32,000 bases of DNA from Nitrosospira multiformis ATCC 25196 (GTDB lineage: Bacteria; Pseudomonadota; Gammaproteobacteria; Burkholderiales; Nitrosomonadaceae). The position numbers and the translations under genes were made by a program. Of the stretch, positions 2,100 to 31,420 are shown piece after piece. The notes beneath the pieces are model-generated. The model saw nothing but the letters and a program-made list of their open reading frames with translations. It was not told the origin of the DNA and did not search any database. The number at the start of each line of letters is the position of its first letter. The first letter of the stretch is position 1. The DNA lies in assembly GCF_000196355.1 (NCBI RefSeq), contig NC_007614.1, positions 240,001 to 272,000 on the forward strand. The letters run 5' to 3'.

Positions 2100-2378
2100 G
2101 CAGGCGGAATCAGCGAGCGCTATTCAATCCACGATCCGCGAAATTAAAAGCACACTTCCGCGGATCCTCCTGAAAGAGCGGCGACGGGTTTTTAAGGGAT
2201 TATCTATTTTCCCTTCTTGACCTCGGCGCCGTTTTTTTATTCATCATCGGGCCTATTCCGGATCTTACAGCCTACTCGGGTGATTAACGTGGGGGGCGGT
2301 GTAAGGTAGGATAGTAAGGACGAGATCTTCCTTTCAGGCCGGCTTTCAATGCGAATGCGCCTGAAAAACGAAAGGTCC

Positions 2379-3566
2379 TTACTGGAAAATAGTCTCGCGC
2401 AACATGGCGAAAGTTTTGCCGACATGATCCATCTGCTCGCTGGTATGAACGGCACTTACACTGCAACGCACCAGCGAATTGCCCTCCGGCGTTGCGGGCG
2501 GCAAGACCAGATTCACATAGATACCCTGTTCAAGCAGTCCTTTCCACAGTGCCAGCGCCTGTTGCGGCGTTTCAAGGATTGTTGCGATAACAGGGCTGGG
2601 TTCCGGTCCCAGGCGATAACCCAGTTCCTTGAGTTGCGAGTAGAGCTGGTGCACATTCTTCCAGAGCTGTCGGCGTAATTCGACCCCCTCCCTCAGCAGC
2701 TTGAGAGCTGCACGGGTTGAGGCGATGGTGGCAGGCGTAGGCGACGCAGTGAAAATATAAGGCCGGCTCACATAGCGCAACTGATCCAGTTGCGGATGAT
2801 TGCTCACACAGTAGCCGCCGATCCCCCCCAAGCTTTTACTGAAGGTGCCTGTGATGAAGTCTACTCTATCGAGGAGGCCTGTTTCTTCTACCAGACCCTG
2901 TCCGGTCTCACCCAGTACCCCCAGGGAATGCGCTTCATCAAGAAGAAGCGTGCTGTTATACGCATCCTTTACCTTGACGATATCCGCCAGCGGCGCGCGG
3001 TCTCCCAGCATACTGTAGATGCCCTCGGCAATGATGAGGGTGGAGCGCGATCTTTCTCCCAGGCGGCGGAGACGCTTCTCCAGATCGGCCGCATCGTTGT
3101 GTCTGAAGCGGATTATTTCGGCGCCGCTCAAACGGCAACCATCGTAGATGCTTGCGTGGGAATCGCCATCGATAAGAACGATGTCGCCGGCCCCGGCCAG
3201 CCCTGAGATGGTTGCAAGGTTGGCCTGATATCCCGTGGTAAATACGATGCAGGACCCGCATTGATAAAACTCGGCAAACTCGCGCTCGAGGGCACGATGG
3301 CCGCTGTAACTGCCATTGGCCATGCGCGAGCCGGTTGTACCCGTGCCTTCATTGTGAATCGCTTCCTGCGCTGCGTCCCGGCATTCCTGAGCGAAGGTAA
3401 GGCCCAGATAATTATTTGTTCCCAGAAACAATATCCGGTGATCCCCGATCCTGGCCTCGGTCGAGGAATAAACTTCTTCTATGGGTGTTCCAAAAACCTC
3501 AACACCCTCAGGCAGCAGGGCTTTTCTCGCTGCCGCCACGGCATCCAGTTTATCTAGCAAACTCAT
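2379..3566 (-). CDS. spt: alpha-oxoamine synthase family PLP enzyme, serine palmitoyltransferase-like
   Basis: 395 aa. The PLP-lysine context GTFSKSLGGIGGY matches the GTFSKS signature I recall for bacterial SPT, as opposed to the T(F/L)GKA-type context of BioF/KBL. Other fold-type-I AOS motifs are present (LDEAHSLGVLG, TTGYQANL). The start overlaps the upstream ACP stop by 4 nt (ATGA). Confidence 0.75.
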   Translation of the reverse strand: MSLLDKLDAVAAARKALLPEGVEVFGTPIEEVYSSTEARIGDHRILFLGTNNYLGLTFAQECRDAAQEAIHNEGTGTTGSRMANGSYSGHRALEREFAEFYQCGSCIVFTTGYQANLATISGLAGAGDIVLIDGDSHASIYDGCRLSGAEIIRFRHNDAADLEKRLRRLGERSRSTLIIAEGIYSMLGDRAPLADIVKVKDAYNSTLLLDEAHSLGVLGETGQGLVEETGLLDRVDFITGTFSKSLGGIGGYCVSNHPQLDQLRYVSRPYIFTASPTPATIASTRAALKLLREGVELRRQLWKNVHQLYSQLKELGYRLGPEPSPVIATILETPQQALALWKGLLEQGIYVNLVLPPATPEGNSLVRCSVSAVHTSEQMDHVGKTFAMLRETIFQ

Positions 3567-13128: not shown

Positions 13129-13205
13129 CGGGGTGTAGCGTAGCCTGGTAGCGCGCCTGGTTTGGGACCAGGATGTCGGGAGTTCAAATCTCTCCACCCC
13201 GACCA
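13129..13205 (+). tRNA. tRNA-Pro (anticodon TGG)
   Basis: Cloverleaf folded by eye. Acceptor CGGGGTG/CACCCCG, anticodon arm CCTGG-TTTGGGA-CCAGG, T-loop GTTCAAATC, encoded CCA. Confidence 0.93.
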
Positions 13206-13240
13206 TTCATGCTAATTCGAGGCGAAATCCGATTTGAGTG

Positions 13241-13317
13241 GTGCCCGTAGCTCAACCGGATAGAGCACCAGCCTTCTAAGCTGGGGGTTACAGGTTCGAT
13301 TCCTGTCGGGCACGCCA
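13241..13317 (+). tRNA. tRNA-Arg (anticodon TCT)
   Basis: Acceptor GTGCCCG/CGGGCAC, anticodon arm CCAGC-CTTCTAA-GCTGG, T-loop GGTTCGATTCC, encoded CCA. Confidence 0.93.
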
Positions 13318-13376
13318 TAAGCTATCTCGTCGTAGCCCTGCGGCGGTTTCGGAATTGTATTGCGATTTTCTCGGAT

Positions 13377-13452
13377 GGTGGCTGTAGCTCAGCGGTAGAG
13401 TCCCGGATTGTGATTCCGGTTGTCGTGGGTTCGATCCCCATCAGCCACCCCA
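13377..13452 (+). tRNA. tRNA-His (anticodon GTG)
   Basis: Has the extra 5' G(-1). Near-identical to E. coli tRNA-His (GGTGGCT.TAGCTCAG...GGATTGTGATTCC...GGTTCGA.TCCCAT.AGCCACCCCA). Confidence 0.95.
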
Positions 13453-14442: not shown

Positions 14443-15246
14443 ATGGGTTTCTTCCCTCCGTTCACTGATGATCATCTTCAGCGTTACTTTCGCATCCTTC
14501 AGGAAGGGACAGCAGTTCGCCGCCATTTTGACCTATTGAAGTGGCTGCAAGGGGAAGTGCAGCATTATTTGCCCCACGAGATCCTGCTTGCGGCGTGGGG
14601 CGATTTCGGTTCGAACAATGTCCAATACGACATCATTTCTCCGCTGCCGGGTCTCAGGACGGCGCAATTGCAGTTGGCCCGGCTTTCTCCATTGCTGCGC
14701 GTATCCTACAACCGGTGGATTGAGGTGGGACGCATTCCTTGTGTATCCAGGGTTTGCGAGGCCCAGCTGGACGTGTCGGGGATTCTCCAGGGGGATGGGG
14801 CGGCGCACTGCCCTTTCGGAAGAGCGTTACGCAACATGCGTTCGTCACTGTTTCATGGTATCAGCGACGAGCGCGGGCACCATGATTGCCTTTACGTCGT
14901 CTTCAGTTCAAAGGATAAGCTTGACGATTCAACATTAATTGCAATGGAAATTCTGCTGCCCTACCTTGATACGGCTTTGCGCCGCGTGACACCCCTGCCG
15001 CAGCACTCCTGCCGGCCCTCCCTCCTCGCAGATGCACCGGAGTATGATCTCCATGGCCTGAGCGAGCGAGAGGTCGAAATAATGACCTGGGTAAGAAAGG
15101 GCAAAACAAATGCCGAAATCGGCAGTATCCTGCGCATCAGTTCTTACACTGTCAAAAACCACCTGCACCAGATATTCCGGAAACTCGATGTCTACAATCG
15201 GGTGCAAGCCATTTCCAAAATTGAACAGCGTGTTGGTCATGGCTGA
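14443..15246 (+). CDS. epsA: XrtB/PEP-CTERM-associated LuxR-family transcriptional regulator EpsA
   Basis: 267 aa. C-terminal LuxR/FixJ HTH LSEREVEIMTWVRKGKTNAEIGSILRISSYTVKNHLHQIFRKLDV. About 190-aa N-terminal domain with no motif I recognise. First gene of the eps locus. Its stop overlaps the next start (ATGGCTGA). Confidence 0.8.
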   Translation: MGFFPPFTDDHLQRYFRILQEGTAVRRHFDLLKWLQGEVQHYLPHEILLAAWGDFGSNNVQYDIISPLPGLRTAQLQLARLSPLLRVSYNRWIEVGRIPCVSRVCEAQLDVSGILQGDGAAHCPFGRALRNMRSSLFHGISDERGHHDCLYVVFSSKDKLDDSTLIAMEILLPYLDTALRRVTPLPQHSCRPSLLADAPEYDLHGLSEREVEIMTWVRKGKTNAEIGSILRISSYTVKNHLHQIFRKLDVYNRVQAISKIEQRVGHG

Positions 15247-16657
15247 GGCAAATCCTACATTTTCCGCTTCAACCGTTACCGCCCGCCAGGTGAAAGGCCC
15301 GCTGGCTAATAATATGCTGAGCGCGGTCGAGTCGGTACTTGATCCGGCAGTACTGACACTTTCGTTATGGCTGATAAGCACCAGTTTTGAAGGCGAATTG
15401 CTCCCGCCTTATTTGATCCTGTCGGTGATCGTATTCTCTATCTCCTTTCCAGGTGCGTCACATCTCCGGTCATCCGTCAAGGTTCTCATCTTCGACGTGC
15501 TCTACACCTGGTTCTGGATGGCTTTGCTACTGTTTTTTCTCGGTTTTGCGACCGGCTATATCGCCCAATTCTCCAGCCAGGTGCTCATTACATGGCTATG
15601 GGCTGCCCCCCTAAGTCAAATCGGCGTCCATCTGCTGTTTCGTATCGCCGCACCCTATCTTCTCATGCTCCAGGGTCCGCCACAGCGCGCCATCATCGTC
15701 GGCATGAACGAGCAGGGGGTCGCCCTCGCCCGTCGTATTCATGAGACGCGTTATTCGAATATGGAACTGTCCGGTTTTTTTGATGATCGGAATGAGAGCC
15801 GACTTTCGCATGCGCGGAATAATCCCTTGCTCGGAAGGCTTCGAGAGCTTCCCGAATTTGTCAAGGAGCATCGCATCCAGTTCATTTATCTGTCGTTGCC
15901 GATGGCTTCCCAGCCACGCATCCTGCATGTTCTCGAAGAACTGAAAGATACGACGGCCTCCATCTATTTCGTACCCGACATGTTTATTACGGATCTTATT
16001 CAGGCGCGAAGTGGCACAGTGTGTGGTACGCCGGTTATCGCTGTCTGCGAATCGCCTTTTACGGGCTCCAATGGGATGGTCAAGCGCGCAAGCGACATTA
16101 TCCTCTCCCTGCTTATACTGCTACTCATATCACCACTTCTGCTGCTCATCGCGGTTGCCATCCGGCTGGATTCGCCAGGGCCCATTATTTTCAAGCAGCG
16201 ACGCTATGGGCTGGACGGAGAGGAAATCCTTGTTTACAAGTTTAGATCGATGAGCGTCTGCGAAGATGGGAATACCATCCGGCAAGCACAAAGGAATGAT
16301 AACCGCATAACCCGCGTCGGGGCTTTCCTGCGAAGCAATTCCCTGGATGAATTGCCGCAGTTCATCAATGTATTGCAGGGGCGCATGAGCATCGTGGGCC
16401 CCAGGCCTCATGCAGTAGCGCACAACGAGATATATCGCAACCTTATAAAAGGCTACATGATCCGGCACAAGGTAAAGCCGGGAATTACAGGTTGGGCGCA
16501 GGTGAACGGCTACCGTGGGGAGACGCGGACCCTGGACAAGATGCAGGCGCGTATCGATCATGATCTCGATTATTTACGCAACTGGTCGTTGCGGCTCGAT
16601 TTGCACATCATCTGCAAGACTATCCTGGTAGTACTGAAAGATCGGGCTGCATATTAA
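15239..16657 (+). CDS. epsB: undecaprenyl-phosphate hexose-1-phosphate transferase (priming polyprenyl glycosylphosphotransferase, EpsB/WcaJ-like)
   Basis: N-terminal TM helices. C-terminal bacterial sugar-transferase domain [43 protein letters not shown]...[21 protein letters not shown]. Start is at the ATG at 15239, not 15110, which lies inside epsA. Confidence 0.88.
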
Positions 16658-16784
16658 ATGCTCTCTCATGCGCCGTAAAGCCTCCCAGCAGTCATTAACA
16701 CGAATAACACTTCCGCTATCCTCTCGTTAATCAAGGTGATACTCTTGCAGTCTCCTTTGTATCGGAAAGATAGAGATATCTAAA

Positions 16785-18104
16785 ATGAAAAAAAGATTGC
16801 CGTTAAATCTTTTCCTTGATTGCCGTCGCTGGATTGCAGTAATTGCCTCTTTGGGTTTTTTTTTGTTGGACATGCAACAGGCAATGGCTCAACAGACGAC
16901 GCCCCATCCCCCCAGGATGGTGCCCGACAAGACTTTCAGCGTGACCGCGGGCACCACATTTACGTATGACAGCAATGTCTTTCGTTTGTCTCCCCTCGTT
17001 AATCCGATTGCATTAACCGGCCAACCGCGGAGAGCCGATCAGATCATCATCACGTCTGCAACTCTTGGGTTTAATAAAAGATATTCCATGCAACGCTTCG
17101 AGGTAACAGGCACCCTGGTTGATAATCGTTACATGAATTTTGATTTCCTTGATTTTCTCGGAAAAAATTACAACGCGGCCTGGCACTGGTATGTAACCCC
17201 TTACCTTCATGGCAGATTGACTAGCCGCCACAGTGAGGCGCTTAACAATTTTGCAAACCTCTCCGGTTTTCTGAATGGCACGAATCGCAACCTACGCACC
17301 CTTGACAACTATCATTTCGATGGAGTTCTTGAGCTTAACCGGGCGTGGCATCTCATTGGAGGGCTTGACCATAGCATCATGAAGAACAGCCGCTTAACCA
17401 TTCAGGATTTCAACAACAAGGTTACCTCGGTGGAGGGGGGAATACGCTATGTCTCCAGTTCCGGCGGCTCGCTCACTTACAGAGTGAGAAGCGGGCGCGG
17501 GGAGTTCATCAATCGACCCGCGCCTCTTCCCGAGTTTCTCTTTGATACCCGTTTCGATGAAATGGAGCACGATCTCCGCATGCATTGGCCCGTCACGGTC
17601 AAGACCTCCATAGAAGGACGAATCGGCTACCTCGACCGCAAACATGCTCATTTTTCCCAGCGGGACTTCGCCGGCTTCGTGGGCGATCTCAATATAAGTT
17701 GGATGCCGACCAGCAAAGTGCAAGTGATGGGAGGATGGTCCAGACAATTATCCAATTATCAGACTGCACCATTTGCCTTTCAGCATTCTATCTTTGAGCG
17801 TTTCTCGAGTAGTTACATTGCCACCAATCGCTTCTCGATTGCCCCGACCTGGCAAATCACGGAAAAGACTGCATTGAGGGTGCGCTATGATTATGTTCTC
17901 AGTGATTTTCATGGCGCTGTTGTTCCTCTTCCTACAGAGAGCCGGAGCGATCAGATGCATTCCGGTCTGGTTGCTCTCGATTGGCGGCCACTTAACACAC
18001 TCTACTTAAGCGCCGCTTTTCATCGGGATCATCGCAGTTCCAACCATCGCGGCTTTGGTTTTGACAGCACCGCAGGAAGTGTGTCGGCCACGCTTAATTT
18101 TTGA
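16785..18104 (+). CDS. epsL: outer-membrane beta-barrel protein of the XrtB polysaccharide locus (EpsL-like)
   Basis: 439 aa. Has a signal peptide and an alternating amphipathic beta-strand pattern throughout. The C-terminus ...SATLNF ends in Phe, the OMP signature. Its position between the priming transferase and epsD matches EpsL-type loci. Confidence 0.7.
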   Translation: MKKRLPLNLFLDCRRWIAVIASLGFFLLDMQQAMAQQTTPHPPRMVPDKTFSVTAGTTFTYDSNVFRLSPLVNPIALTGQPRRADQIIITSATLGFNKRYSMQRFEVTGTLVDNRYMNFDFLDFLGKNYNAAWHWYVTPYLHGRLTSRHSEALNNFANLSGFLNGTNRNLRTLDNYHFDGVLELNRAWHLIGGLDHSIMKNSRLTIQDFNNKVTSVEGGIRYVSSSGGSLTYRVRSGRGEFINRPAPLPEFLFDTRFDEMEHDLRMHWPVTVKTSIEGRIGYLDRKHAHFSQRDFAGFVGDLNISWMPTSKVQVMGGWSRQLSNYQTAPFAFQHSIFERFSSSYIATNRFSIAPTWQITEKTALRVRYDYVLSDFHGAVVPLPTESRSDQMHSGLVALDWRPLNTLYLSAAFHRDHRSSNHRGFGFDSTAGSVSATLNF

Positions 18105-18366
18105 TGATCAAGCAATCCATGTTCGCTATTATTACTATTGAGAGGAGTTGGGAAAAGGTGATTTACAATGGGAGTCTGGTAGTACGAACGGACTATTGCA
18201 GCCAAATACCACCTCGGCTACCGTGGTTGTCAGCTACCTGAATTACACGCCGGTATTGACGAGAATCTGTACTGGCAGGAAGAGTGAACTGCTTGAAAAA
18301 AAGGATTGTTTTAAATTATTGTCCTATTCTTTAACCGAAAAGCCAATGGCTCAACAAATTGATCAT

Positions 18367-19338
18367 ATGAAAATGAATCGTCAGAAATTCATAACGCCAC
18401 TATTACTTCCGTTGCTTGTTTTAGGACTCGCAGCCTGCGACAAAAAAGAATCCTCACAACCGGCCAGCCAGGTAGCGGCCAAAGTAAATTCCGGCGAAAT
18501 ATCCGTGCATCAACTCAATTATGTTCTGGCCAGAGCCACGCGCAATAGCGCAAATTCTCCGGAAAATGCATCCAGGATTCGCCGGGAAGTTCTTGATCGC
18601 CTGGTCGATCAGGAACTTGCGGTAGAACAGGCTATCAATAAAAAACTTGACCGTTCGCCGGAAGTTCTCATGGCCCTGGATAATGCACGTAGAGAGATTC
18701 TTGCACGTGCCTATCTCGAGCAGATCACTGCGGCTACTCCAAAGCCAACCGTCGAAGAAGCAAAAACCTACTATTCGGAACATCCACAGCTTTTCGCGGA
18801 ACGGCGCATTTATAACATACAGGAAATTGTGCTTCCTTCATCAGCCGGCGTCGCGGACGAGCTGCGGGAAATGCTCGACTCAGGCAAACCCATGGAAGAC
18901 ATTGCGAAGTGGCTCAAAGGCAAGGACATAAAGTTTGCCGCTGGCAGCGCAACACGTTCCGCCGAGCAGATTCCCCTTGAGATCCTGCCCAAGATACATC
19001 CGCTGAAACCCGGCCAGGGCTTGCTCATCCAGGGTCCGCAATCGATTACCCTCATGCGGATCGCTGCCGCACAAACGGCGCCGATTACCGAAGCAGCAGC
19101 GTTGCCGCGCATCCAGCAGTTTCTTGGAAATCAGCGCGCGGCGGAAGCCGCCCGGGGGGAAATAAAGGCTCTCAAGGCAAAAGCCAATATCACCTACATG
19201 GGCGAATTCGCTGTTCCGGATAAAAATGCATCCGGGGGAGAAAATTCCGTTTCGTCAGTCGCCAGTGCTAGGGATTCAAGTTCGCCCCAAGCCGATAATC
19301 CCGGCCTTGAAAAGGGTGCGGCGGGTTTGTTGAGATAA
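18367..19338 (+). CDS. epsD: peptidyl-prolyl cis-trans isomerase, EpsD family (SurA/parvulin-like lipoprotein)
   Basis: Lipoprotein signal MKMNRQKFITPLLLPLLVLGLAAC. SurA-like N-terminal chaperone region followed by a degenerate parvulin-like domain. Start is placed at 18367; the ORF track extends 73 codons upstream to a TTG, which is unlikely. The exact start is uncertain (18346, 18367 or 18373). Confidence 0.75.
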   Translation: MKMNRQKFITPLLLPLLVLGLAACDKKESSQPASQVAAKVNSGEISVHQLNYVLARATRNSANSPENASRIRREVLDRLVDQELAVEQAINKKLDRSPEVLMALDNARREILARAYLEQITAATPKPTVEEAKTYYSEHPQLFAERRIYNIQEIVLPSSAGVADELREMLDSGKPMEDIAKWLKGKDIKFAAGSATRSAEQIPLEILPKIHPLKPGQGLLIQGPQSITLMRIAAAQTAPITEAAALPRIQQFLGNQRAAEAARGEIKALKAKANITYMGEFAVPDKNASGGENSVSSVASARDSSSPQADNPGLEKGAAGLLR

Positions 19339-19366
19339 CACAATTATCAAGAGGAAGTTCGACAAT

Positions 19367-20161
19367 ATGTTCCAAATTTTGGTTCGTACCTTGATTCTTT
19401 TATCCATGTTGTTTTCGGTTAAGGTTTTTGCCGAGAGTCCTGACTACCCGCTGGGTCCGGGTGATATCCTGCGCATTCAGGTTTTTCAAAATCCTGACCT
19501 TACTACTGAAACCCGGGTTTCCGAAAGTGGTTCCATCACCTTTCCGCTGGTTGGCGCTCTCGAGGTCGGAGGACTTTCTGTTGCTTCCGCCGAAAATAAA
19601 CTTGCAGCCGCCCTTAAAAAGGGAGGGTTCATAAAGCAACCCCAAGTGACCATTGTCCTCCTGCAGATGAGGGGTAGTCAGGTGAGTGTGCTGGGGCAGG
19701 TCAATCGACCGGGACGCTTTCCACTGGAAACCCTGAGCAGGGTGAGTGACATGCTGGCTGCCGCGGGAGGTACCACTCCGCTCGGCGACGATTTTGCAAT
19801 CGTTACCGGTACACGCAACGGACAGGCCTTCCGAAAGGTGATCGATATTCCCGCACTCTATCTGGAAGAGAGATCCGATGAAGATATCATCCTTGCTGGA
19901 GGAGACACGATTTATGTTCACCGGGCTCCCGTTTTCTATATTTACGGCGAGGCCCAGCGGCCTGGTGCTTATCGTATCGAGCGAGGCATGACCGTAATGC
20001 AGGCTCTGGCTCAGGGCGGGGGGCCGACTCCGCGTGGTAGCGAATGGTGGTTGCGCCTTCATCGCAGAAACGCGGATGGGGTCGTGGAGAAGCTTTCGCC
20101 CGACATGACCGATGCTGTCCAGCCTAATGACATAATTTATGTGCGAGAAAGCATTTTTTAA
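19367..20161 (+). CDS. epsE: polysaccharide export protein EpsE (Wza/Poly_export family, periplasmic)
   Basis: 264 aa. Signal peptide. Poly_export motif YPLGPGDILRIQVFQNPDLT...GSITFPLVGALEVGGLS, plus SLBB-type repeats. GAGGA is the SD. Confidence 0.88.
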   Translation: MFQILVRTLILLSMLFSVKVFAESPDYPLGPGDILRIQVFQNPDLTTETRVSESGSITFPLVGALEVGGLSVASAENKLAAALKKGGFIKQPQVTIVLLQMRGSQVSVLGQVNRPGRFPLETLSRVSDMLAAAGGTTPLGDDFAIVTGTRNGQAFRKVIDIPALYLEERSDEDIILAGGDTIYVHRAPVFYIYGEAQRPGAYRIERGMTVMQALAQGGGPTPRGSEWWLRLHRRNADGVVEKLSPDMTDAVQPNDIIYVRESIF

Positions 20162-20175
20162 GAGTCTTCCGGACT

Positions 20176-21567
20176 ATGACACTTCAACAATTTTTACTCA
20201 TCCTTCGTGCCCGGTATAAGGTAGTCCTCTATATTTTATTGTTTACGGTAATCGCTACCCTTGTAGTCAGTTTGCTATTGCCTAAACAATATACCGCTGG
20301 TACAGCTGTAGTGGTTGACATTAAATCGCCCGATCCGGTAGCGGGGATGGTATTGCCCGGTTTGACGTCACCTACTTACATGGCTACCCAGGTCGACGTG
20401 ATCAATAGCGACCGTGTAGCAGAGCGTGTCGTAAAAATGCTGCGCCTGGATGAAAGCCCTGTCGTAAAGGAGCAGTGGGAGGAGGACGGAAGCAAGGGTG
20501 AGCTTACCACCTGGCTGGCCAACTTGCTGAAAAGAAAGCTTGATGTCAAACCTTCCCGGGAAAGCAACGTAATCTACATTGAGTATACCGGGAATGATCC
20601 CAATTTTGCCGCCGCTGTTGCAAACGCTTTCGCTCAAGCTTATATCGACGTGAATCTGGATTTGAAGGTCGCCCCTGCCCGCCAGTATGCCCACTGGTTC
20701 AAAGGACAAACTGCCGCTGCCAGGGATGAGCTAGAGCGAGCCAAAGCTGCACTTTCCGCGTATCAACAGGAAACCGGTCTCGTCGCTACCGAGGAACGTC
20801 TGGATTACGAAGTAGCCAAGCTCAATGAACTTTCAAGTCAACTTACTCTTATCCAAGCCCAGACATCGGACAGTAGCAGTAAACGGAAAGCCGCTGAAGA
20901 TCCGGACACTTTAGCTGAGGTCATACAGAGCCCGCTAATAAATAGCCTCAAATCGGATATTGCGCGCCTCGACGCAAAGCTTCAGGAAAGCAGCGCCTAT
21001 CTGGGACCAAATCATCCACAAACCAAACGCACTCAATCTGAACTCGCGTCTCTCAGAGGCAAGCTATCCGCTGAAACACGCAAGATTCATAGCAGTATCG
21101 GCACTTCATATGAAGTGGGGAAGCGAAAGGAGCAAGAGTTGCTCGAGGCGATGGAAAGGCAGAAGGGGCGCGTGTTGGAGCTTAACAGACAGCGTGATCA
21201 GATGAGTGTTCTTCAAGGGGATGTGGAAGCTGCGCAACGCAATTTCGAAGGCATAAGCCAGCGTAGTGCCCTCACCCGTCTGGAAAGCCTTTCCGTTCAG
21301 ACTAACATAACCCCGTTGAACCCTGCTTCAGTCCCGAGTGAGCCGTCAAGCCCTAAATTGCTGCTCAATACATTGATCTCCATCTTTCTAGGTACGCTGT
21401 TGGGTGTGAGCGCCGCTCTGGTTATGGAATTGATGAATCGACGCGTGCGTTCTGTAGAGGACATCGTGGAAGCCATAGAGATTCCGGTGCTGGCGGTAAT
21501 GTCCGGCCCGTCTCGCAACAAGCTTTCGAGTCGTCTTCCCAAATTACCCAACCCGGAAACCAGTTAA
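20176..21567 (+). CDS. epsF: chain-length determinant protein EpsF (Wzz/GumC-type polysaccharide co-polymerase)
   Basis: 463 aa. N-terminal TM helix (VVLYILLFTVIATLVVSLLL), a long coiled-coil periplasmic region, and a C-terminal TM helix (LLLNTLISIFLGTLLGVSAALVM). Confidence 0.88.
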   Translation: MTLQQFLLILRARYKVVLYILLFTVIATLVVSLLLPKQYTAGTAVVVDIKSPDPVAGMVLPGLTSPTYMATQVDVINSDRVAERVVKMLRLDESPVVKEQWEEDGSKGELTTWLANLLKRKLDVKPSRESNVIYIEYTGNDPNFAAAVANAFAQAYIDVNLDLKVAPARQYAHWFKGQTAAARDELERAKAALSAYQQETGLVATEERLDYEVAKLNELSSQLTLIQAQTSDSSSKRKAAEDPDTLAEVIQSPLINSLKSDIARLDAKLQESSAYLGPNHPQTKRTQSELASLRGKLSAETRKIHSSIGTSYEVGKRKEQELLEAMERQKGRVLELNRQRDQMSVLQGDVEAAQRNFEGISQRSALTRLESLSVQTNITPLNPASVPSEPSSPKLLLNTLISIFLGTLLGVSAALVMELMNRRVRSVEDIVEAIEIPVLAVMSGPSRNKLSSRLPKLPNPETS

Positions 21568-21587
21568 TACTCAAACGGAGCTACATC

Positions 21588-22517
21588 ATGAATCCCGTAA
21601 GCGCCAGTTTGCCTGCCATCAAGCGGAGTCAGAATTCCAATTCCCGCGAGTCGTTCTTTGCTGGCCGAACTCAAATCATTGGAAATAGCAGTTCGATCGG
21701 AGCTATTCTCGTCAATGCGGGAAGGCTATCCGAGGAGAATGTGACCCGCATACTGGAAGCGCAAGTACAGCAGCAAAACCACTTTGGTGAAGCGGCCATA
21801 TGCCTCGGCTTGCTCACGGAAGACGATGTGCGCTTTGCTCTTTCGCGCCAGTTTAACAATCTCTATCTGCCAGCAGGGGACAGCAGCCTCAGTCATCATT
21901 TAATTGCGGCTTACAAACCGTTCAGTCCTGTCGTCGAACACCTGCGAAGCCTACGCAGCCAGCTCATGCTGCGCTGGTTCGAGCCGGATACTGACCGGAA
22001 CGTGCTTGCCATTGTCAGCCCAGGGCTGGGAGAAGGTCGAAGCTTCATAGCTGCCAATCTTGCCATCGTTTTTTCGCAGCTTGGCAAAAGTACATTGCTC
22101 ATCGATGCAAATCTTCGGGCGCCCCGGCAGCAGGAATTCTTTAAAGTGAATACAGGTGGGGGCTTATCCAGCTACCTTGCAGGCCGTGCTGGTTTGGAGA
22201 GCATTGTCAGAATTCCTTCATTGCTTGGACTTTCTGTCCTGCCCGCGGGTGCAGTACCGCCAAATCCGCAAGAACTTATCGGTCGACCCGTTTTCGCGGA
22301 TTTGCTGCAATCGGTTGGCTGCGAGTTTGATGTCGTTATCGTGGATACCCCCTCAGCAAGCGAATACGGGGAAGCGCAAATCATCGCAACCGAGGCCTCT
22401 GCTGCCTTGATTGTCCTTCGAAAGAATCATACCTCTCTATCACGCACCGTGGATCTTGCGCGACGTTTCCAGCAGACGGGCGCTGCGGTAGTAGGTTCTG
22501 TGCTGAATGATTTTTGA
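21588..22517 (+). CDS. epsG: EpsG, BY-kinase-like P-loop protein (chain-length regulator partner) with an MshEN/T2SSE_N-like N-terminal domain and atypical catalytic motifs
   Basis: 309 aa. Core IVSPGLGEGRSFIAANLAIVFSQLGKSTLLIDANLRAP...DVVIVDTPS aligns to the Walker A, A-prime and B motifs of bacterial tyrosine kinases, but with K->R and DxD->DxN. The N-terminal 110 aa carry a tandem repeat similar to GspE/MshE N-domains. Confidence 0.85.
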   Translation: MNPVSASLPAIKRSQNSNSRESFFAGRTQIIGNSSSIGAILVNAGRLSEENVTRILEAQVQQQNHFGEAAICLGLLTEDDVRFALSRQFNNLYLPAGDSSLSHHLIAAYKPFSPVVEHLRSLRSQLMLRWFEPDTDRNVLAIVSPGLGEGRSFIAANLAIVFSQLGKSTLLIDANLRAPRQQEFFKVNTGGGLSSYLAGRAGLESIVRIPSLLGLSVLPAGAVPPNPQELIGRPVFADLLQSVGCEFDVVIVDTPSASEYGEAQIIATEASAALIVLRKNHTSLSRTVDLARRFQQTGAAVVGSVLNDF

Positions 22518-22693
22518 ACAATAAAGGCGGTATGGATTTAGGGTAATACCCCATGGATGGTTCGCGTGATCGAAATTCCACGAACATCAGGCGCTAAACG
22601 AAAGGGATGGCATATATCTTATATTTTCTTCATTTTCTTGATTCGCTTGGGAAAACAGAGAGGAGGGCTATTGGCCCAGTTGGGAAGGCCGTA

Positions 22694-23158
22694 TTAATTC
22701 CGGCGCCGCCACTCTGCCCGGAGCAGGGCAATACCGATAAGGCTACCTGTCACATCAGCGGCAAAATCATCCCACCCCGGCTTGCGGCCGGGCAGATACA
22801 TCTGGTGACATTCATCAAACAAGCCGATCAGCGTTGCCCCGAGAAATGCGAGGCCCACCCGTCGCCAGCCAGGGATGCCGCTTGCTGCCCCTCCTATAGC
22901 CCCAGTAAGCACGGCGAAAATAACAGCGTGGACCAGCTTATCCCAAGGACTGGGTACCAGGTTTACGGCAACAGGGTGCGCTCCACCGGCAAATAGACCC
23001 GTCAGAATTCCCAGCACGAGCAACATGGAGGCAGTGCGAAGGTAGCGAGATGACAGATATTGTGAAAACAAAATGATTATAAATTCCTCAATTATCTTCA
23101 ATAGAAAAAACCCGCCAGCGGAACCCCGCAATCTCATGCTCATCTGGCTACCTATCAT
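22694..23158 (-). CDS. VanZ-like family membrane protein (antisense to the eps operon)
   Basis: DKLVHAVIFAVLTG...FDECHQMYLPGRKPGWDDFAADVTGSLIG fits the VanZ (PF04892-type) pattern. Four predicted TM helices. The start is uncertain: Met codons at 23158, 23143, 23137 and 23026. The 23026 start would give a 110-aa four-TM protein. Confidence 0.7.
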   Translation of the reverse strand: MIGSQMSMRLRGSAGGFFLLKIIEEFIIILFSQYLSSRYLRTASMLLVLGILTGLFAGGAHPVAVNLVPSPWDKLVHAVIFAVLTGAIGGAASGIPGWRRVGLAFLGATLIGLFDECHQMYLPGRKPGWDDFAADVTGSLIGIALLRAEWRRRN

Positions 23159-23987
23159 TGCCGGGTTAATCGTACTTTATTTACCAAGTCTGGTCGATCT
23201 TTTTCGCGGCGTCTGGTCCACAGATCAGCAAGCTCATGGTCCGATTGTGCTGAGTATCGCCTGTTGGCTTATCTACCGGAAGTGGCCGGAAATGTGGCAT
23301 CAGAGCGAGTCGGAGCCTTCAGCTCCGGCTGCAGGCTGGCCCATCTTTATTTTTGGCCTGATCCTCTATGTGATCGGGCGCTCCCAGGAAATCCTGCTGT
23401 TCGAAATCGGCTCGGTAATCTGGCTGCTTGCCGCCATTGTTTTGCTTATGCGCGGCTCCCGCGCGCTCAAGGTGCAATGGTTTCCGCTCTTTTTCATGTT
23501 GTTCATGATTCCTCTCCCCTCCGCCTTCGTCGATGCTCTGACAATGCCGATGAAAATGGCAGTTTCATATGTGGCGGAAACCATTCTTTTCTGGTTCAAC
23601 TACCCCATCGCGCGTACCGGAGTGATCCTGCAAATCGGGCAATACAAGCTGCTGGTAGCAGATGCGTGTGCAGGCCTTCATACTCTCTTTACGCTCGAGG
23701 CGCTCGGCCTGCTCTATCTTAATCTGGTTCGTCACGACTCGTTATTCAGAAACGTCGCATTGGCTATCTTCATTGTCCCGATATCCTTCACCGCCAACGT
23801 TATACGGGTAATGGTACTGACACTGATTACCTACCATTTCGGCGATGAGGCGGGGCAAGGCTTCCTGCACGGCTTCGCCGGCATGGTGCTGTTCCTCAGT
23901 GCCCTCCTGCTGATCATTGGGGTCGATTCACTATTACAAATGGCAGTCAGGTTGCGTGTTAGAAGCAACGCGCTTGGCGACGCATGA
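23136..23987 (+). CDS. xrtB: exosortase B (EpsH/XrtB)
   Basis: Polytopic membrane protein with the exosortase Cys/Arg/His signature: LLVADACAGLHTLF, FTANVIRVMVL, GFLHGFAGMVLF. N-terminal LYLPSLVDLFRGVWSTDQQAHGPIV. Alternative start at 23073. Its stop overlaps the epsI start. Confidence 0.88.
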   Translation: MLIWLPIIAGLIVLYLPSLVDLFRGVWSTDQQAHGPIVLSIACWLIYRKWPEMWHQSESEPSAPAAGWPIFIFGLILYVIGRSQEILLFEIGSVIWLLAAIVLLMRGSRALKVQWFPLFFMLFMIPLPSAFVDALTMPMKMAVSYVAETILFWFNYPIARTGVILQIGQYKLLVADACAGLHTLFTLEALGLLYLNLVRHDSLFRNVALAIFIVPISFTANVIRVMVLTLITYHFGDEAGQGFLHGFAGMVLFLSALLLIIGVDSLLQMAVRLRVRSNALGDA

Positions 23988-24667
23988 TGATGAATCCCTG
24001 GCTAAGAAACTGCTTACTTCTAGTACTCATGCTCGCTGCCTCAGGCCTCGCGCTTGCATTGAAGCCTACCCAAAAAATCGCCGACCAGGGTCCGGCAGTC
24101 GACCTCGAAAAAATAATACCGAAGGAATTCGGAGACTGGAGGGAAGAGCAGCACAACTTCATACAAATGGTCGATCCCCAGCAAAAGGAGCTGATCGAAC
24201 GTATCTACACCCAGACATTGAGCCGTACGTACGCGAATTCCAACGGCTATCGCATCATGCTGGCAATAGCCTATGGTGACGATCAAAGAGATTCCATGCA
24301 AACACACTATCCGGAGGTGTGTTATCCGGCACAAGGTTTTGAACTGATATCGAGAGAGAAAGGAAGCGTTGTCTCGCCAACGGGTTCGATTCCAGTTGTG
24401 CAGCTCGTAACCTCGCTGGAAAAACACAGGATTGAACCTGTCACGTATTGGGTAATGATAGGCGACATGCCAATAGTCCAGGGCTGGAAAAAGAAGCTGG
24501 CGGAGATGCAATATGGCTTGAGGGGGCTGATTCCCGATGGACTGCTTTTTCGGGTTTCATCCATTGATGAAGATAACCGGCACGCATTTGAAATGCACCA
24601 GGCATTCATAAACGATATCCTGGCCGCAATGCCGGTAATACAACGAAAGCGATTTTCAGGAACGTGA
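23984..24667 (+). CDS. epsI: EpsI family protein (exosortase-associated periplasmic partner)
   Basis: 227 aa. N-terminal anchor NCLLLVLMLAASGLALAL. Immediately downstream of xrtB and translationally coupled to it. The size and position are canonical for EpsI. Confidence 0.8.
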   Translation: MMMNPWLRNCLLLVLMLAASGLALALKPTQKIADQGPAVDLEKIIPKEFGDWREEQHNFIQMVDPQQKELIERIYTQTLSRTYANSNGYRIMLAIAYGDDQRDSMQTHYPEVCYPAQGFELISREKGSVVSPTGSIPVVQLVTSLEKHRIEPVTYWVMIGDMPIVQGWKKKLAEMQYGLRGLIPDGLLFRVSSIDEDNRHAFEMHQAFINDILAAMPVIQRKRFSGT

Positions 24668-26223: not shown

Positions 26224-27717
26224 TTGCGAGGCTTCCTCGTGCTGACAGTCATTATTCTTTCGATAGCTGTCTTTGTTTTTGCGCTTGGTTCAATCGTTGC
26301 AATGAGCGCTGTGGCAGGCGCAGCTTCCCGCTGGCCAGGTCAAATGTTCAGCTATCTGATGTGGATGATAGTGATGGCAGGTGTGGGCGGTATCCTCGTT
26401 TCAGGGCGTATTCTCAGAATAGACGAAGAAGCTTTGGTTATGGGAGCAGTGGGCGAAGCTGGGGGCACGATAATTGCCAAATTGCTCCTCTCCGCTGTAA
26501 TCGGGGTTTCCCTCGCTTTATGCGTGACATGGATATTGTTGTCGAGCAAAAGGAAGGCAGGGGGTAACCGTTTTGAACAAAGGAGACTGAATTCGCCAAA
26601 TGATATCGTGATTGCGTTTATGGTGTTCTATATCGCGTTCAGCATTCTGCCGCTCATCTTTGGAAAGAGCCATCAATTTCACGTATCACTGTTTTATCCA
26701 TTTTTCGTGTTTATCGCCTTATTTCTGTGGATGCGGTTGTCGAAGGTTGACCCGGTTATCGTGGCGAAGCAGTGCCTGGGATTTATTGTATTGACTAGTT
26801 TGGTCATGGCCGTGCTAATTCCCCAGCTGGCCGTTCAGCCCAGCTATGTAGGACTTATCCCCGGATTCAATTCGCGACTTTGGGGGTTAACGGCAGGAGC
26901 AAACTCTCTTGGATCAGTCGCTGGCACTCTTCTCGTGCTGGAGGCCGCCGAGCCATCCGCCAGGAGATGGCTCGGCAATGGAATTTTTTTCACTGCTGCC
27001 CTAGCCTTGGTTTTAACTCAATCCAAGACCTCCATTCTGGCAGCGTTCCTGGGGCTTTTGATCATTTTTGGATATCGACTGGTGACCGGGCTTCAAGGAA
27101 AAAGCTTGAACGGACGTAATGAAAATTTAATTTTAATTATTCTAATAGCGTTTTTTATTTTGTTTATCACGGCAGTCAGTGCGTGGGTGATGTTCTTTGA
27201 TACAAGCGTCTTTACTTCACTTGAACGCAGCCTGGATTCGCGAGCGGTTAGCAAATTGGCAACGGCAAGCGGACGAACCTGGATATGGGAAGTTGCTTTG
27301 CGAGGAGGAATGGAGAATCCTCTGTTCGGACAGGGTTTAGGCTTCTGGAGCTTGGAGAATCGGCTTCGGTGGGGGCTGGGGGGTGCCGTACATGCCCATA
27401 ATTTGTTTCTTGACGTGTTTGCCCGTTCTGGATTTGTGGGCTTGAGCACACTATTGGTTTTTCTCTATTTTGTTTTTCGCTACTCCGTACGCGCGACCCG
27501 GTACACGCATGGAGGCAGCATTGCGTTGGCAGTCATCTTTCTCGTTCGAGCGACGTTTGAAGTGCCACTTCAACCAAATGCCATTCTAGGAGCGGAATCC
27601 ATGGCAATGTTGGCTTTTTTCCTCTATGTAATCGATAGAGGAGCCAAACAGCGCGACAAAGCCAATGAGCCCGTCCAAGTGCGGGCACATTTTTTAAGAG
27701 CAGGAAACTTCCGATGA
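26224..27717 (+). CDS. O-antigen ligase / Wzy-like polymerase family membrane protein
   Basis: Polytopic. Wzy_C-type loop and motif GRTWIWEVALRGGMENPLFGQGLGFW...AHNLFLDVFARSGFVGL. Only non-ATG starts (TTG 26224 or GTG 26239) preserve the first TM helix. Confidence 0.72.
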   Translation: MRGFLVLTVIILSIAVFVFALGSIVAMSAVAGAASRWPGQMFSYLMWMIVMAGVGGILVSGRILRIDEEALVMGAVGEAGGTIIAKLLLSAVIGVSLALCVTWILLSSKRKAGGNRFEQRRLNSPNDIVIAFMVFYIAFSILPLIFGKSHQFHVSLFYPFFVFIALFLWMRLSKVDPVIVAKQCLGFIVLTSLVMAVLIPQLAVQPSYVGLIPGFNSRLWGLTAGANSLGSVAGTLLVLEAAEPSARRWLGNGIFFTAALALVLTQSKTSILAAFLGLLIIFGYRLVTGLQGKSLNGRNENLILIILIAFFILFITAVSAWVMFFDTSVFTSLERSLDSRAVSKLATASGRTWIWEVALRGGMENPLFGQGLGFWSLENRLRWGLGGAVHAHNLFLDVFARSGFVGLSTLLVFLYFVFRYSVRATRYTHGGSIALAVIFLVRATFEVPLQPNAILGAESMAMLAFFLYVIDRGAKQRDKANEPVQVRAHFLRAGNFR

Positions 27718-29101: not shown

Positions 29102-31420
29102 ATGTTTAGAAAACCTACATTACAGGCCCTTGCCGTTGCCAGTCTGCTCGCTCACACTCAGGTTGGATGTCAACAGCTACCTCCAGAGAAAATCGACAAT
29201 CGAATGAGCGATTGGGCAGAGCCGACAGCCGCCGAACAGATTCCCGTCACGCCGGCGAATGGAGCCATAGTGAAACAGAACCCGCCGGATTTTGACTGGC
29301 GGCGCATAAACCTTTCCGCAGAGTACGTACTGGTGCTACAGCATGAAGGGGGAAAACGTTATGAGTGGCGGACTCCGCGGAATTGGTACTTGCCCTCCGC
29401 CAGTCTGCCGCCAGGTAAATACTCCTGGCAAGTTCGTCCGATTGGACCGGGAAGCGGAGTCGGCGAGAGCGCTTGGCGCCGATTCACAATATCCGAGGAT
29501 GCGATACCATTCGTTGTACCGGATAACGAAGATTTGTTGCGGGAATTACGAAACAAACCCCGGCCTCGTAGTTTCGTGCGTGGTAAGGATGAAAGCAAGT
29601 CGCGTTCACTCGTGCAGAGTGAGCGAAGCAATGTAGTGGCCACCGTGAAAAATCAGGTGAAAAAAAAGATGGCTCAGCCCGCACTTGCCGCACCCCCGAA
29701 ACTAGTTGACCGCAAAGTCGGCAAGGGGGCAGGCTGGGCGAATTCCTTATTTGCCATCCGAAACTATGTATCAGGAGAAGCGTATCAACTCAGGGCCACG
29801 GCTTTCCTCTGGCAGCTTAATCACGATCCGGCGCTGCTGGCAGAGGCATTGAGAACCGGCGATGCACTTGCTGCACTGGACCCGAACGGTCCTACAGGAC
29901 ATAAATCCCAGGATCAGGCATCCCGCGATATCGCAATTGGACTTGCCTCAGCCTTCGATTGGCTGGGAGATGCAGTACCCGCGGAATCCCAGCAGCTATG
30001 GCTAAAAGCCATCGCAGCGCGAGGCCAAGCAATCTATGACGACCTTCTGGGCGGGCAAAGGCGCTTCGAGTTGGCACGCTACGATTCGCACGGATGGACA
30101 AATCTGGGGTATCTCGCCGATCTTTCCGCGCTAATGGTTGGGACCCTACCGGTGGCTGATAACTGGTTTAATGATTCCTTCCGTTTTTATATTCATACCG
30201 TGAGCCCATGGGGGGGCGAGGAAGGAGGGTGGGCGAACAGTTCGGCTTACGCCATATGGTCGCTTAACTTGGGTATCATTCCGCGCTGGGACTCGATTCG
30301 GGCCGCGACGGGAATCAATATCTATAAGAAACCCTGGTCTCAGGGACTTCTCAAGTACTTTGTATATTTCGAGCCTCCCTCTTCACCCATCCAGCTTTTT
30401 GGGGATGGCGCAGAGATGCCTCCCGACTTCAGCCAGATTAAGGGCTACGCTTCGCGGCAGGATAGTCCGCTGGCCGCGTGGTACTTTCTCAATATTGATA
30501 AAAGAGAATATCCCCTACAGGTCTTGGAAGCCCCGATTCCTCTTCCGGTGGAAGGAATCAAACCTGAGCCACCTCGAGCAAATTCAATCGCTTTTCACGA
30601 TATAGGATGGGTGGCGATGCATAGCGCAATAGTCGATCCATTGAGAACATCCGTTTATTTCCGGTCAAGCCCATACGCGGCGTTTGGCCACAGCCACGCC
30701 GATAACAATTCTTTTGTCCTCGTATCCAGAGATGAGCCATTGCTGATCGCTAGCGGATACTACGACTGGGAAGGTTCTCCTCACTGGAAACAATGGTATT
30801 GGCAAACCAAGGCTCACAATGCCATCACTTTTGATGGAGGAAAAGGTCAAGCAGAGAAAACAGGTTCGGGAAAGATGACTGCAAAGGGACAATTGACGGA
30901 ATTCCAGAGTAACGGGAAAGTGGATTTCACGGAAGGAGATGCAACCCCGGCCTATGAGGGTGCCTTGCAACAGGCTAGAAGGCGTCTGTGGTACTTGCGG
31001 AATAAAAATGTGCTCATCATCCATGATTCCTTGCGCTCTGCCACTCCACGTCAGTTCGAGTGGAATATACATGCTCTCAACCCATTCGAGATCAAGGAAC
31101 CGGGATCAATCGAGGTCAAGCAGAAGGCCGCGCGCGCCTGTATCAACATGCTGCAGCCGCACGCCATTGAATTCGCGCAGAACAACAGATTTGACGCTCC
31201 TCCTCAAATACCTCCCTCGCGAAATGAAAATGACCAAGGTGGTGCACGCACGACCAATGATCAGTGGCATGGACGTTTCCAGACGAAAGAGCGAATGGCT
31301 GCCGTAGAGTTTCTGGCCGTAGTGGATATAGACTGTAAGAATATTCCGATAGAGATGGGAAATTTTGAAAGTAATCGGAAGATCAAGGTGGGGGACGAGA
31401 GCATTCATGTTGCCCGATAA
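29102..31420 (+). CDS. heparinase II/III-like family lipoprotein (DUF4962 N-domain plus alpha/alpha-toroid plus heparinase II/III C-domain)
   Basis: 772 aa. Lipoprotein signal ...LLAHTQVGC. N-terminal NPPDFDWRR...LPPGKYSWQVRP (DUF4962-like). C-terminal SPYAAFGHSHADNNSFVL, which is characteristic of heparinase II/III-type lyases. Confidence 0.78.
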   Translation: MFRKPTLQALAVASLLAHTQVGCQQLPPEKIDNRMSDWAEPTAAEQIPVTPANGAIVKQNPPDFDWRRINLSAEYVLVLQHEGGKRYEWRTPRNWYLPSASLPPGKYSWQVRPIGPGSGVGESAWRRFTISEDAIPFVVPDNEDLLRELRNKPRPRSFVRGKDESKSRSLVQSERSNVVATVKNQVKKKMAQPALAAPPKLVDRKVGKGAGWANSLFAIRNYVSGEAYQLRATAFLWQLNHDPALLAEALRTGDALAALDPNGPTGHKSQDQASRDIAIGLASAFDWLGDAVPAESQQLWLKAIAARGQAIYDDLLGGQRRFELARYDSHGWTNLGYLADLSALMVGTLPVADNWFNDSFRFYIHTVSPWGGEEGGWANSSAYAIWSLNLGIIPRWDSIRAATGINIYKKPWSQGLLKYFVYFEPPSSPIQLFGDGAEMPPDFSQIKGYASRQDSPLAAWYFLNIDKREYPLQVLEAPIPLPVEGIKPEPPRANSIAFHDIGWVAMHSAIVDPLRTSVYFRSSPYAAFGHSHADNNSFVLVSRDEPLLIASGYYDWEGSPHWKQWYWQTKAHNAITFDGGKGQAEKTGSGKMTAKGQLTEFQSNGKVDFTEGDATPAYEGALQQARRRLWYLRNKNVLIIHDSLRSATPRQFEWNIHALNPFEIKEPGSIEVKQKAARACINMLQPHAIEFAQNNRFDAPPQIPPSRNENDQGGARTTNDQWHGRFQTKERMAAVEFLAVVDIDCKNIPIEMGNFESNRKIKVGDESIHVAR

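Follow-up and report, generated by a model that had tools for sequence, protein, structure and literature searches.

The MshEN domain was defined by Wang et al. (2016, Nat Commun 7:12481, PMC5013675). Its N-terminal half, MshEN_N, is a 53-residue module that binds one molecule of c-di-GMP (cyclic diguanosine monophosphate) in MshE of Vibrio cholerae, PilF of Thermus thermophilus and NfrB of Escherichia coli. In MshE, guanine O6 and N7 are read by main-chain amides at the two glycines of the motifs, the bases are stacked against hydrophobic clusters, and a pair of glutamines forms bonds with the ribose-phosphate (Wang et al. 2016, PMC5013675). The isolated V. cholerae module (residues 1–62/65) binds c-di-GMP with a KD of 0.35 μM, the N subdomain alone being sufficient. 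The MshEN domain of NfrB binds with a Kd of 1 μM, and c-di-GMP activates this exopolysaccharide (EPS) glycosyltransferase. Most non-ATPase MshEN proteins were still uncharacterised according to a 2021 paper. The present analysis concerns EpsG, encoded in a stretch of 32,000 nucleotides of Nitrosospira multiformis ATCC 25196 (contig NC_007614.1, positions 240,001 to 272,000, forward strand). This whole stretch is called the window, and coordinates are counted from its first letter. Residues ~33–90 of EpsG are a genuine MshEN_N domain, as judged by profile, sequence match to solved structures, fold and conservation, and they precede a P-loop domain with the fold of the bacterial tyrosine kinases (BY-kinases). 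From sequence and models, the domain is judged fairly likely to bind c-di-GMP.

The association of MshEN_N with a P-loop domain in EpsG is already known as a prediction published in 2016. EpsG of Methylobacillus flagellatus (Mfla_2024) is found among the predicted c-di-GMP binders in Supplementary Table 3 of Wang et al. (2016, PMC5013675). It also has a row in Supplementary Table 4, and an alignment of its residues 19–97 is shown in the supplement. The protein was classed there as MshEN_N-only, "MshEN_N - AAA_31", from beta- and gamma-proteobacteria, the prediction being based on motif conservation only. A second body of work concerns BYK-like proteins, or BY pseudokinases, which act as scaffolds of polysaccharide co-polymerases of class 2 (PCP-2) and include EcpK/EpsV of Myxococcus xanthus and HfsB/HfsA of Caulobacter crescentus (Blocher et al. 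2025, PMC12004946). Neither c-di-GMP nor MshE nor EpsG is mentioned in that work, and no paper linking the 2016 MshEN catalogue with the 2025 pseudokinase work was found in the open-access literature. The sole modestly new element is the link between MshEN_N and the pseudokinase problem.

EpsG is the 309-residue product of an open reading frame (ORF) at 21588–22517 on the forward strand. In the NCBIfam profile search it scores 490.2 bits against TIGR03029, the EpsG equivalog (cutoff 313.8), and it is 98% identical in sequence to Nitrosospira multiformis EpsG. The full-length AlphaFold2 (AF2) model has a predicted local distance difference test score (pLDDT) of 87.5 and a predicted template modelling score of 0.81. 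The gene and the features of its first part are:

21588–22517, forward strand: epsG, encoding a disordered N-terminus, the MshEN_N domain, a linker and a BY-kinase-fold P-loop domain (TIGR03029, AF2)
21588–21680, forward strand: N-terminal tail, residues 1–31, poorly conserved and predicted disordered (pLDDT <50)
21693–21764, forward strand: MshEN_N motif I, helices α1–α2, S-I-G...G-R-L...V...L..Q (aligns to MshE R9–Q32)
21765–21779, forward strand: five-residue spacer VQQQN (length kept, sequence variable)
21780–21851, forward strand: MshEN_N motif II, helices α3–α4, H-F-G...G-L-L...V...L..Q (aligns to MshE R38–Q61)

Motif I (SIGAILVNAGRLSEENVTRILEAQ, residues 36–59), the spacer (residues 60–64) and motif II (HFGEAAICLGLLTEDDVRFALSRQ, residues 65–88) form a unit of 53 residues, EpsG 36–88, at window positions 21693–21851. 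Most orthologue alignments begin at about residue 33, after the N-terminal tail. The first-pass annotation, made from the sequence, had drawn attention to these tandem 24-residue motifs and their five-residue spacer, and both the sequence and the coordinates are exact. The MshEN consensus and five-residue linker that it gave agree with the source paper (Wang et al. 2016, PMC5013675). The imperfections that it listed are real, namely Ser and His at position 1 of the first and second copies, and Arg at position 11 of the first. Two Methylobacillus EpsG proteins, BAC55137 from Methylobacillus sp. 12S and Mfla_2024 from M. flagellatus KT, catalogued by Wang et al. (2016; Supplementary Tables 3 and 4, Supplementary Fig. 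3), belong to the same TIGR03029 family, with the same architecture and motif register. Motif I of Mfla_2024 opens with T-I-G and motif II with R-F-G, with Lys at position 11. Compared with the Methylobacillus proteins, the EpsG studied here opens motif I with Ser and motif II with His, so that both stacking arginines are gone.

A likeness arising by chance, or from low complexity in an amphipathic helical region, was evaluated with shuffled sequences of EpsG composition. The motif was loosened by leaving positions 1 and 11 free, and the exact five-residue spacing was kept. Single matches to the loose motif occur in 1.5% of the shuffles, which is the point in favour of chance. The tandem arrangement was met in 0 of 200,000 shuffles, the expectation for a protein with this composition being about 7e-7 occurrences. 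When all 32 kb are translated in six frames, the two copies in EpsG are the sole single-motif matches. With the shuffles, the profile E-values, the structural match by Foldseek and the deep conservation described below refute a chance origin, the probability of which is considered negligible.

The NCBIfam profile NF053729 ("c-di-GMP_motif, MshE-related") spans EpsG residues 37–88 with its positions 2–53 out of 53, at E = 1e-8. Against a curated cutoff of 38 bits, the score is 37.3 for residues 1–110 and 38.3 for the isolated 82-residue domain, and the E-values of the EpsG constructs range from 1e-8 to 9e-10. All of the 62 divergent EpsG N-domains tested match NF053729, with a best E-value of 1.7e-15, and 28 of them match the NfrB model. 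When these 62 domains were combined into an orthologue profile and searched against the PDB, the 14 matches with E <0.01 were all MshEN/GSPII domains. T. thermophilus PilF was matched at E = 1.4e-25 and the N-domain of V. cholerae MshE (5HTL) at E = 1.8e-10. The latter alignment is gapless and in register, with S36, G38, Q59, H65, G67 and Q88 of EpsG corresponding to R9, G11, Q32, R38, G40 and Q61 of MshE. With the single EpsG sequence, the E-values are 1.9e-6 for PilF and 0.025 for 5HTL. In a Pfam search, EpsG had no match to PF05157 (T2SSE_N) at E up to 10, and only a weak match to DUF4388 (E = 0.004). The Pfam model of 2016 omitted the first three MshEN_N helices, and hence the binding site (Wang et al. 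2016, supplement, PMC5013675). Also, in the AF2 model EpsG is without the T2SSE_N1 (MshEN_C) half, the linker running directly into the P-loop domain. For these two reasons the missing PF05157 match is not counted against an MshEN_N domain.

The AF2 model of residues 28–115 is a four-helix unit with a pLDDT of 86.9. A Foldseek search of the PDB with this model returned MshEN/GSPII domains as its top 14 matches. The first is c-di-GMP-bound MshE 5HTL, which fits the predicted fold with a root-mean-square deviation of 0.9 Å over 55 columns (Foldseek probability 1.00); the deviation is 1.2 Å for c-di-GMP-bound GSPII-B of PilF. The Foldseek E-values of the MshEN overlays are weak, between 0.1 and 1, as expected for a match of only 55 residues. 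According to the alignment and the model, EpsG and V. cholerae MshE would thus share the 53-residue, two-motif four-helix bundle with its Gly, Gln and hydrophobic contact residues. The differences from MshE are that EpsG is limited to the MshEN_N half, without a T2SSE_N1 subdomain, that it lacks the position 1 Arg in both motifs and carries Arg at position 11 of motif I, and that its output domain has a BY-kinase fold whereas that of MshE has the hexameric ATPase fold of type II secretion systems and type IV pili.

Conservation was examined in a close set of 121 orthologues with at least 60% identity to EpsG, and in a divergent set of 150 representatives of 50%-identity clusters, 39–58% identical to EpsG. 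The motif core is invariant and free of insertions and deletions in the close set, with I37, G38, I40, L41, G45, R46 and Q59 the same in all 121 proteins. The MshEN_N unit measures exactly 53 residues in 137/151 family members, and the spacer has five residues in 139/151 aligned members while its sequence varies. In motif I of the divergent representatives, G38 is kept in 144/150, L41 in 143/150 and Q59 in 128/150. The corresponding figures for motif II are 144/150 for F66, 143/150 for G67, 138/150 for L85 and 144/150 for Q88. At least 17 of the 19 positions of the MshEN core are kept in 132 of the 147 full-length family members. Position 65 is Arg in 98/121 close and 89/150 divergent orthologues, the His65 of the studied EpsG being a minority, clade-specific variant. 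Taken together, the profile match, the conservation of both motifs and of the five-residue spacer down to 39% identity, and the predicted fold support the MshEN-like sensor of c-di-GMP in the first-pass annotation as a candidate. Of the profile matches that it had looked to, the one to the MshEN profile was obtained and the one to T2SSE_N was not.

R46, at position 11 of motif I (21723–21725), is a further feature of the family. This position is Lys or Arg in 114/150 divergent members and invariant in the close set, whereas MshE has the hydrophobic core residue Ile19. Conservation of a basic residue there would imply a family-specific function, such as a contact with phosphate or between domains.

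Binding of c-di-GMP was then considered residue by residue. Each MshEN motif has six key contacts (R, L, G, L, L, Q), five of which are kept in each EpsG motif with conservative hydrophobic swaps, both Arg being missing. The kept contacts are I37, G38, V52, L56 and Q59 in motif I, and F66, G67, V81, L85 and Q88 in motif II. Arg at position 1 is dispensable, because GSPII-B of PilF binds with a KD of 6 nM with Lys and Leu there; GSPII-C has Pro. Mutation of charged residues of MshE, including Arg9, changed the affinity less than fivefold (Wang et al. 2016, PMC5013675). The persistence of Q59 and Q88 is the strongest computational argument for a site that would still be in use, because Gln is polar and its sole described role is contact with the ligand.

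Several observations weigh against binding. The whole EpsG protein scores 34.7 bits with NF053729, below the curated cutoff. Both copies fail the published relaxed pattern [RKPN]hGxxhhxx[GAS]hhxxxxhxxxhxx[QNKRYWST] (Wang et al. 2016), copy 1 at positions 1 (Ser36) and 11 (Arg46), and copy 2 at position 1 (His65). Motif I fails it across the family, at position 1 in 91/145 and at position 11 in 122/145 divergent members; the pattern is passed by motif I in 10/145 and by motif II in 58/145. The change I19R, equivalent to R46 of EpsG, is among those listed for the non-binder XpsE, and for GSPII-A of PilF, another non-binder, a Ser at position 1 of the motif was considered a substantial loss. GSPII-A remained a non-binder after its consensus residues had been restored, the site being occluded by an N-capped extra turn of α1. 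EpsG is absent from the isothermal titration calorimetry table of 2016, and no later EpsG binding test was found in the open-access literature. Finally, no gene for a GGDEF, EAL or HD-GYP protein is present among the ORFs scanned in the 32-kb window, so that any c-di-GMP sensed by EpsG would have its source encoded elsewhere. By contrast, some nfrB operons carry an adjacent diguanylate cyclase gene.

These observations raise the alternative that the domain, although truly homologous to MshEN_N, has lost nucleotide binding and serves as a docking or spacer module towards EpsF, the priming transferase EpsB or a neighbouring EpsG. The departures of motif I (Ser, Thr or Pro at position 1, Lys or Arg at position 11) are conserved. 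Near-consensus non-binders exist: PilF GSPII-A, homologous to the EpsG domain like the binder GSPII-B, has a good motif yet does not bind, owing to its N-capped helix extension and to subdomain contacts. I19R, as noted above, is among the XpsE changes. Non-binding GSPII/MshEN domains with docking-type roles are known, and complexes of the Xanthomonas citri PilB N-domain with PilZ are among the structural neighbours of the EpsG N-domain model. However, the known non-binders have lost Gly or Gln residues (G11V, G40L and Q61V in XpsE; H33 and R62 in GSPII-A), and EpsG keeps all four almost universally. The EpsG profile that matches MshE at 1.8e-10 matches XpsE with an E-value of only 0.63. No occluding α1 extension of the GSPII-A type is predicted for EpsG; in the models the first residue of helix α1 is I37, preceded by disordered residues, which is weak evidence. 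Loss of binding is therefore regarded as rather unlikely.

It is improbable that the domain has instead been retuned by the changes at positions 1 and 11 to another nucleotide, such as 3′3′-cyclic GMP–AMP (cGAMP), cyclic di-AMP (c-di-AMP) or a linear dinucleotide. V. cholerae MshEN does bind cGAMP weakly (Wang et al. 2016, PMC5013675), and the substitutions specific to the EpsG family lie next to the ligand site. Against this, O6 and N7 of guanine are recognized through main-chain amides, those of the motif Gly and of the residue after it, which excludes c-di-AMP, and those glycines are kept in EpsG. Binding of c-di-GMP is the favoured reading of the domain.

The second part of EpsG consists of a linker and the P-loop domain, with the following features:

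21852–21935, forward strand: conserved linker, residues 89–116, QF(N/D)xxYLPxGDxSLSxxLVAAYKPF (orthologue alignment, AF2)
21936–21956, forward strand: ExxRxxR motif, E117, R120, R123 (R120 invariant, E117 and R123 at least 90%, in 128 sequences)
22017–22043, forward strand: degenerate Walker A S-P-G-L-G-E-G-R151-S, residues 144–152 (in alignments, R151 takes the place of the Lys in Walker A of CapB and BceF)
22095–22118, forward strand: Walker A′ LLIDANLR (D173 kept in 150/151, R177 in 139/151)
22332–22355, forward strand: Walker B VVIVDTPS (D253 kept in 141/151, T254 in 131, P255 in 126)
22485–22517, forward strand: C-terminus ...VGSVLNDF-stop without a Tyr cluster, residues 300–309 (orthologue tails, CapB and BceF alignments)

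In the linker, F89, Y93, Y109 and P111 are invariant in the close orthologues. The model shows no regular secondary structure there except a short helix at 106–109, with a pLDDT of ~85. The conserved segment of residues 89–104 (21852–21899, FNNLYLPAGDSSLSHH) corresponds, over residues 89–103 in the alignments, to the stretch of MshE just past Q61, where MshEN_C (T2SSE_N1) joins on. On this alignment, the segment may be a vestige of the MshEN_C subdomain.

Residues ~110–309 are homologous to the BY-kinases CapB, BceF, Wzc, Etk and VpsO, with E-values of ~1e-28 by sequence and ~1e-18 by structure; in Foldseek, the E-values of the EpsG model with CapAB, Wzc and Etk lie between 1e-18 and 1e-17. 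Wzc and Etk of E. coli, CapAB of Staphylococcus aureus, BceF of Burkholderia cepacia and VpsO of V. cholerae share with EpsG the fold, Walker A′ and Walker B, as well as the ExxRxxR motif. The latter is the ring-contact motif of BY-kinases, as in CapB and Wzc. EpsG differs from these canonical enzymes in the replacement of the Walker A Lys by Arg, the absence of a C-terminal Tyr cluster and the additional N-terminal MshEN_N domain.

Position 151 is Arg in 120 of the 121 close orthologues. In the divergent representatives it is Arg in 102, Lys in 14 and Ser, Cys, Ala or Thr in 30. The Walker A Lys is thus absent from 137/151 members, and the MshEN core is the better conserved of the two. Position 175 in Walker A′ is Asp in 106 and Asn in 39 of the 151. 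Tyr is absent from the last 20 residues of 116/121 close orthologues, and 118/151 divergent members have no Tyr beyond position 300. The alignments of CapB and BceF stop two residues short of the EpsG C-terminus, which lies at the point where the Tyr cluster of a BY-kinase would start. No gene for a phosphotyrosine phosphatase was found among the ORFs scanned in the 32-kb window. A trade-off between the Walker A Lys and either the MshEN motifs or a Tyr tail was looked for and rejected: the motif score averages 17.6/19 in the 14 members with Lys, none of which has more than one tail Tyr.

In P-loop nucleoside triphosphatases, change of the Walker A Lys to Arg (e.g., RecA K72R) usually spares nucleotide binding and cripples hydrolysis. 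As Walker A′ and B are retained, nucleotide binding may persist in EpsG. From these sequence features, the P-loop domain is probably a nucleotide-binding scaffold, that is a pseudokinase, rather than an autophosphorylating kinase, and the family name of "tyrosine kinase" is probably a misnomer. The first-pass annotation had described a fusion to a BY-kinase-like P-loop module. The fold homology bears this out, and kinase activity is doubtful with the Walker A Lys and the Tyr cluster absent.

The gene directly preceding epsG encodes a co-polymerase:

20176–21567, forward strand: epsF, membrane polysaccharide co-polymerase (PCP-2) without a kinase domain (TIGR03017 EpsF, 745 bits)

EpsF has 463 residues and consists of the chain-length-determinant part only; it is presumed to be the partner of EpsG. 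EpsG with its separate co-polymerase resembles the split CapA/CapB arrangement. EpsG is likened to a BY pseudokinase because the Walker A Lys is replaced by Arg and the Tyr cluster is missing: it has the fold without the catalytic Lys or the Tyr tail, and lies next to a PCP-2, EpsF, that has no kinase part. EcpK/EpsV and HfsB/HfsA likewise comprise a stand-alone BY-kinase fold beside a kinase-less PCP-2, without Tyr tail or catalytic Lys, and fused variants exist too. EcpK differs from EpsG in lacking all Walker motifs as well as an MshEN domain, whereas EpsG retains the greater part of the P-loop along with Walker A′ and Walker B. When the C-terminal 113 residues of EpsF were compared with the PDB for the α1–β1 docking element of Wzc/CapA, no significant match was obtained, which is uninformative.

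A plausible mechanism, given somewhat better than even credence, is that the MshEN_N module of EpsG binds c-di-GMP and thereby gates EpsF-linked polymerization and export. EpsG would be the cytoplasmic partner of the co-polymerase EpsF in an EPS pathway of the Wzx/Wzy type. One c-di-GMP would bind to the four-helix bundle as in MshE. Binding would change the association of the BY-kinase-fold domain with EpsF, with itself, or with both, self-association being ring oligomerization through the retained ExxRxxR motif. The altered association would in turn gate polymerization and export. By analogy, activation at high c-di-GMP would fit NfrB and general EPS biology. A wider proposal, put forward tentatively and thought doubtful, is that the EpsG family consists of c-di-GMP-gated BY pseudokinases, in which binding and release of c-di-GMP might replace the cycle of Tyr phosphorylation and drive assembly and disassembly of EpsF.

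Post-translational control by c-di-GMP is known for synthase-dependent EPS, as with cellulose (BcsA), poly-N-acetylglucosamine (PGA), Pel and NfrB. We know of no established direct c-di-GMP receptor on the Wzx/Wzy co-polymerase machinery; EpsG would be one if it binds c-di-GMP. NfrB, a family 2 glycosyltransferase with a C-terminal MshEN, resembles EpsG in that an MshEN domain is attached to an EPS machine. The difference is that NfrB belongs to a synthase-dependent pathway and carries a full MshEN on the catalytic enzyme, whereas EpsG belongs to a Wzx/Wzy pathway and carries its domain on the co-polymerase partner. Polymer length and export in Wzx/Wzy pathways would then be coupled directly to a second messenger. 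This would also provide a candidate answer to the question left open in 2025 of what drives the cycling of PCP-2 proteins without Tyr phosphorylation. This is a large family: hundreds of 50%-identity clusters come from beta- and gamma-proteobacteria and from metagenomes. Among its members are nitrifiers and floc formers that matter for wastewater biofilms. As the prediction is ten years old, what is still to be gained would come from experiment rather than from the observation.

The gene cluster around epsG has the order of an exosortase B (XrtB) operon:

14443–24667, forward strand: XrtB/Eps operon, epsA, epsB (wcaJ-like), epsL, epsD, epsE, epsF, epsG, xrtB, epsI (NCBIfam equivalogs above cutoff)

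Six genes (epsA, B, L, D, E and F) lie upstream of epsG, and xrtB and epsI lie downstream. In every related locus examined, a Wzz/GNVR co-polymerase gene is found directly 5′ of the EpsG-like gene, with a gene for a short outer-membrane polysaccharide export protein (OPX). In three proteins (P0138, P0170 and P0205), the Wzz and GNVR co-polymerase part and the EpsG-like part are fused as in Wzc, giving ~750–790 residues, and the full-length EpsG match includes the MshEN_N region. The Wzc-like EpsF/EpsG fusions are P0138 (749 residues; positions 1113–3362 of locus L003), P0159, P0170, P0205 and P0246. In them, MshEN_N is placed between the membrane part and the P-loop domain.

Exosortase and EpsI genes are adjacent in the window and in loci L003 and L005, immediately downstream in L003. 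Locus L001, encoding an EpsG homologue with 40% identity (P0224), has genes for a β-barrel (BBP2_2), a short OPX and the co-polymerase, followed directly by those for a flippase, a pyruvyl transferase and Wzy. The flanks fetched for L001 extend 8 kb upstream and 6 kb downstream, and no exosortase or EpsI gene was found in them. A strict tie of the architecture to exosortase B was rejected, since these flanks of L001, one of the four informative loci, contain no exosortase. For the same reason, the MshEN_N/P-loop module appears from the gene content to belong to the OPX/co-polymerase core, and not strictly to exosortase B.

Other observations concern the neighbouring genes. EpsE (19367–20161) is a short OPX of 264 residues. 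It is encoded near EpsL (16785–18104), a dedicated outer-membrane protein that is of BBP2_2 type in related loci. The EpsE/EpsL pair resembles a composite OPX/β-barrel translocon, unlike the Wza-type channel; such a composite arrangement was reportedly described in 2022. Between epsG and xrtB, on the reverse strand at 22694–23158, lies an ORF for a VanZ-like membrane protein of 154 residues (PF04892, E = 1.3e-9). Because this ORF and the longest xrtB ORF share the first 86 bases of the latter, xrtB probably has its true start further downstream; the match to the XrtB profile sets in at residue 25. A cluster of tRNA-Pro(TGG), tRNA-Arg(TCT) and tRNA-His(GTG) genes (13129–13452, forward strand), some 1 kb upstream of epsA, sets the eps locus apart from housekeeping genes (ispA-like, dxs, folE2). 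At the distal end of the locus, the product of 26224–27717 (forward strand) has a weak match, far below cutoff, to the O-linking oligosaccharyltransferase TfpM over residues 311–420, and its assignment to the E. coli type is tentative. Further on, 29102–31420 (forward strand) encodes a heparinase II/III-like protein of 772 residues, which may be a polysaccharide lyase for the product of the locus itself.

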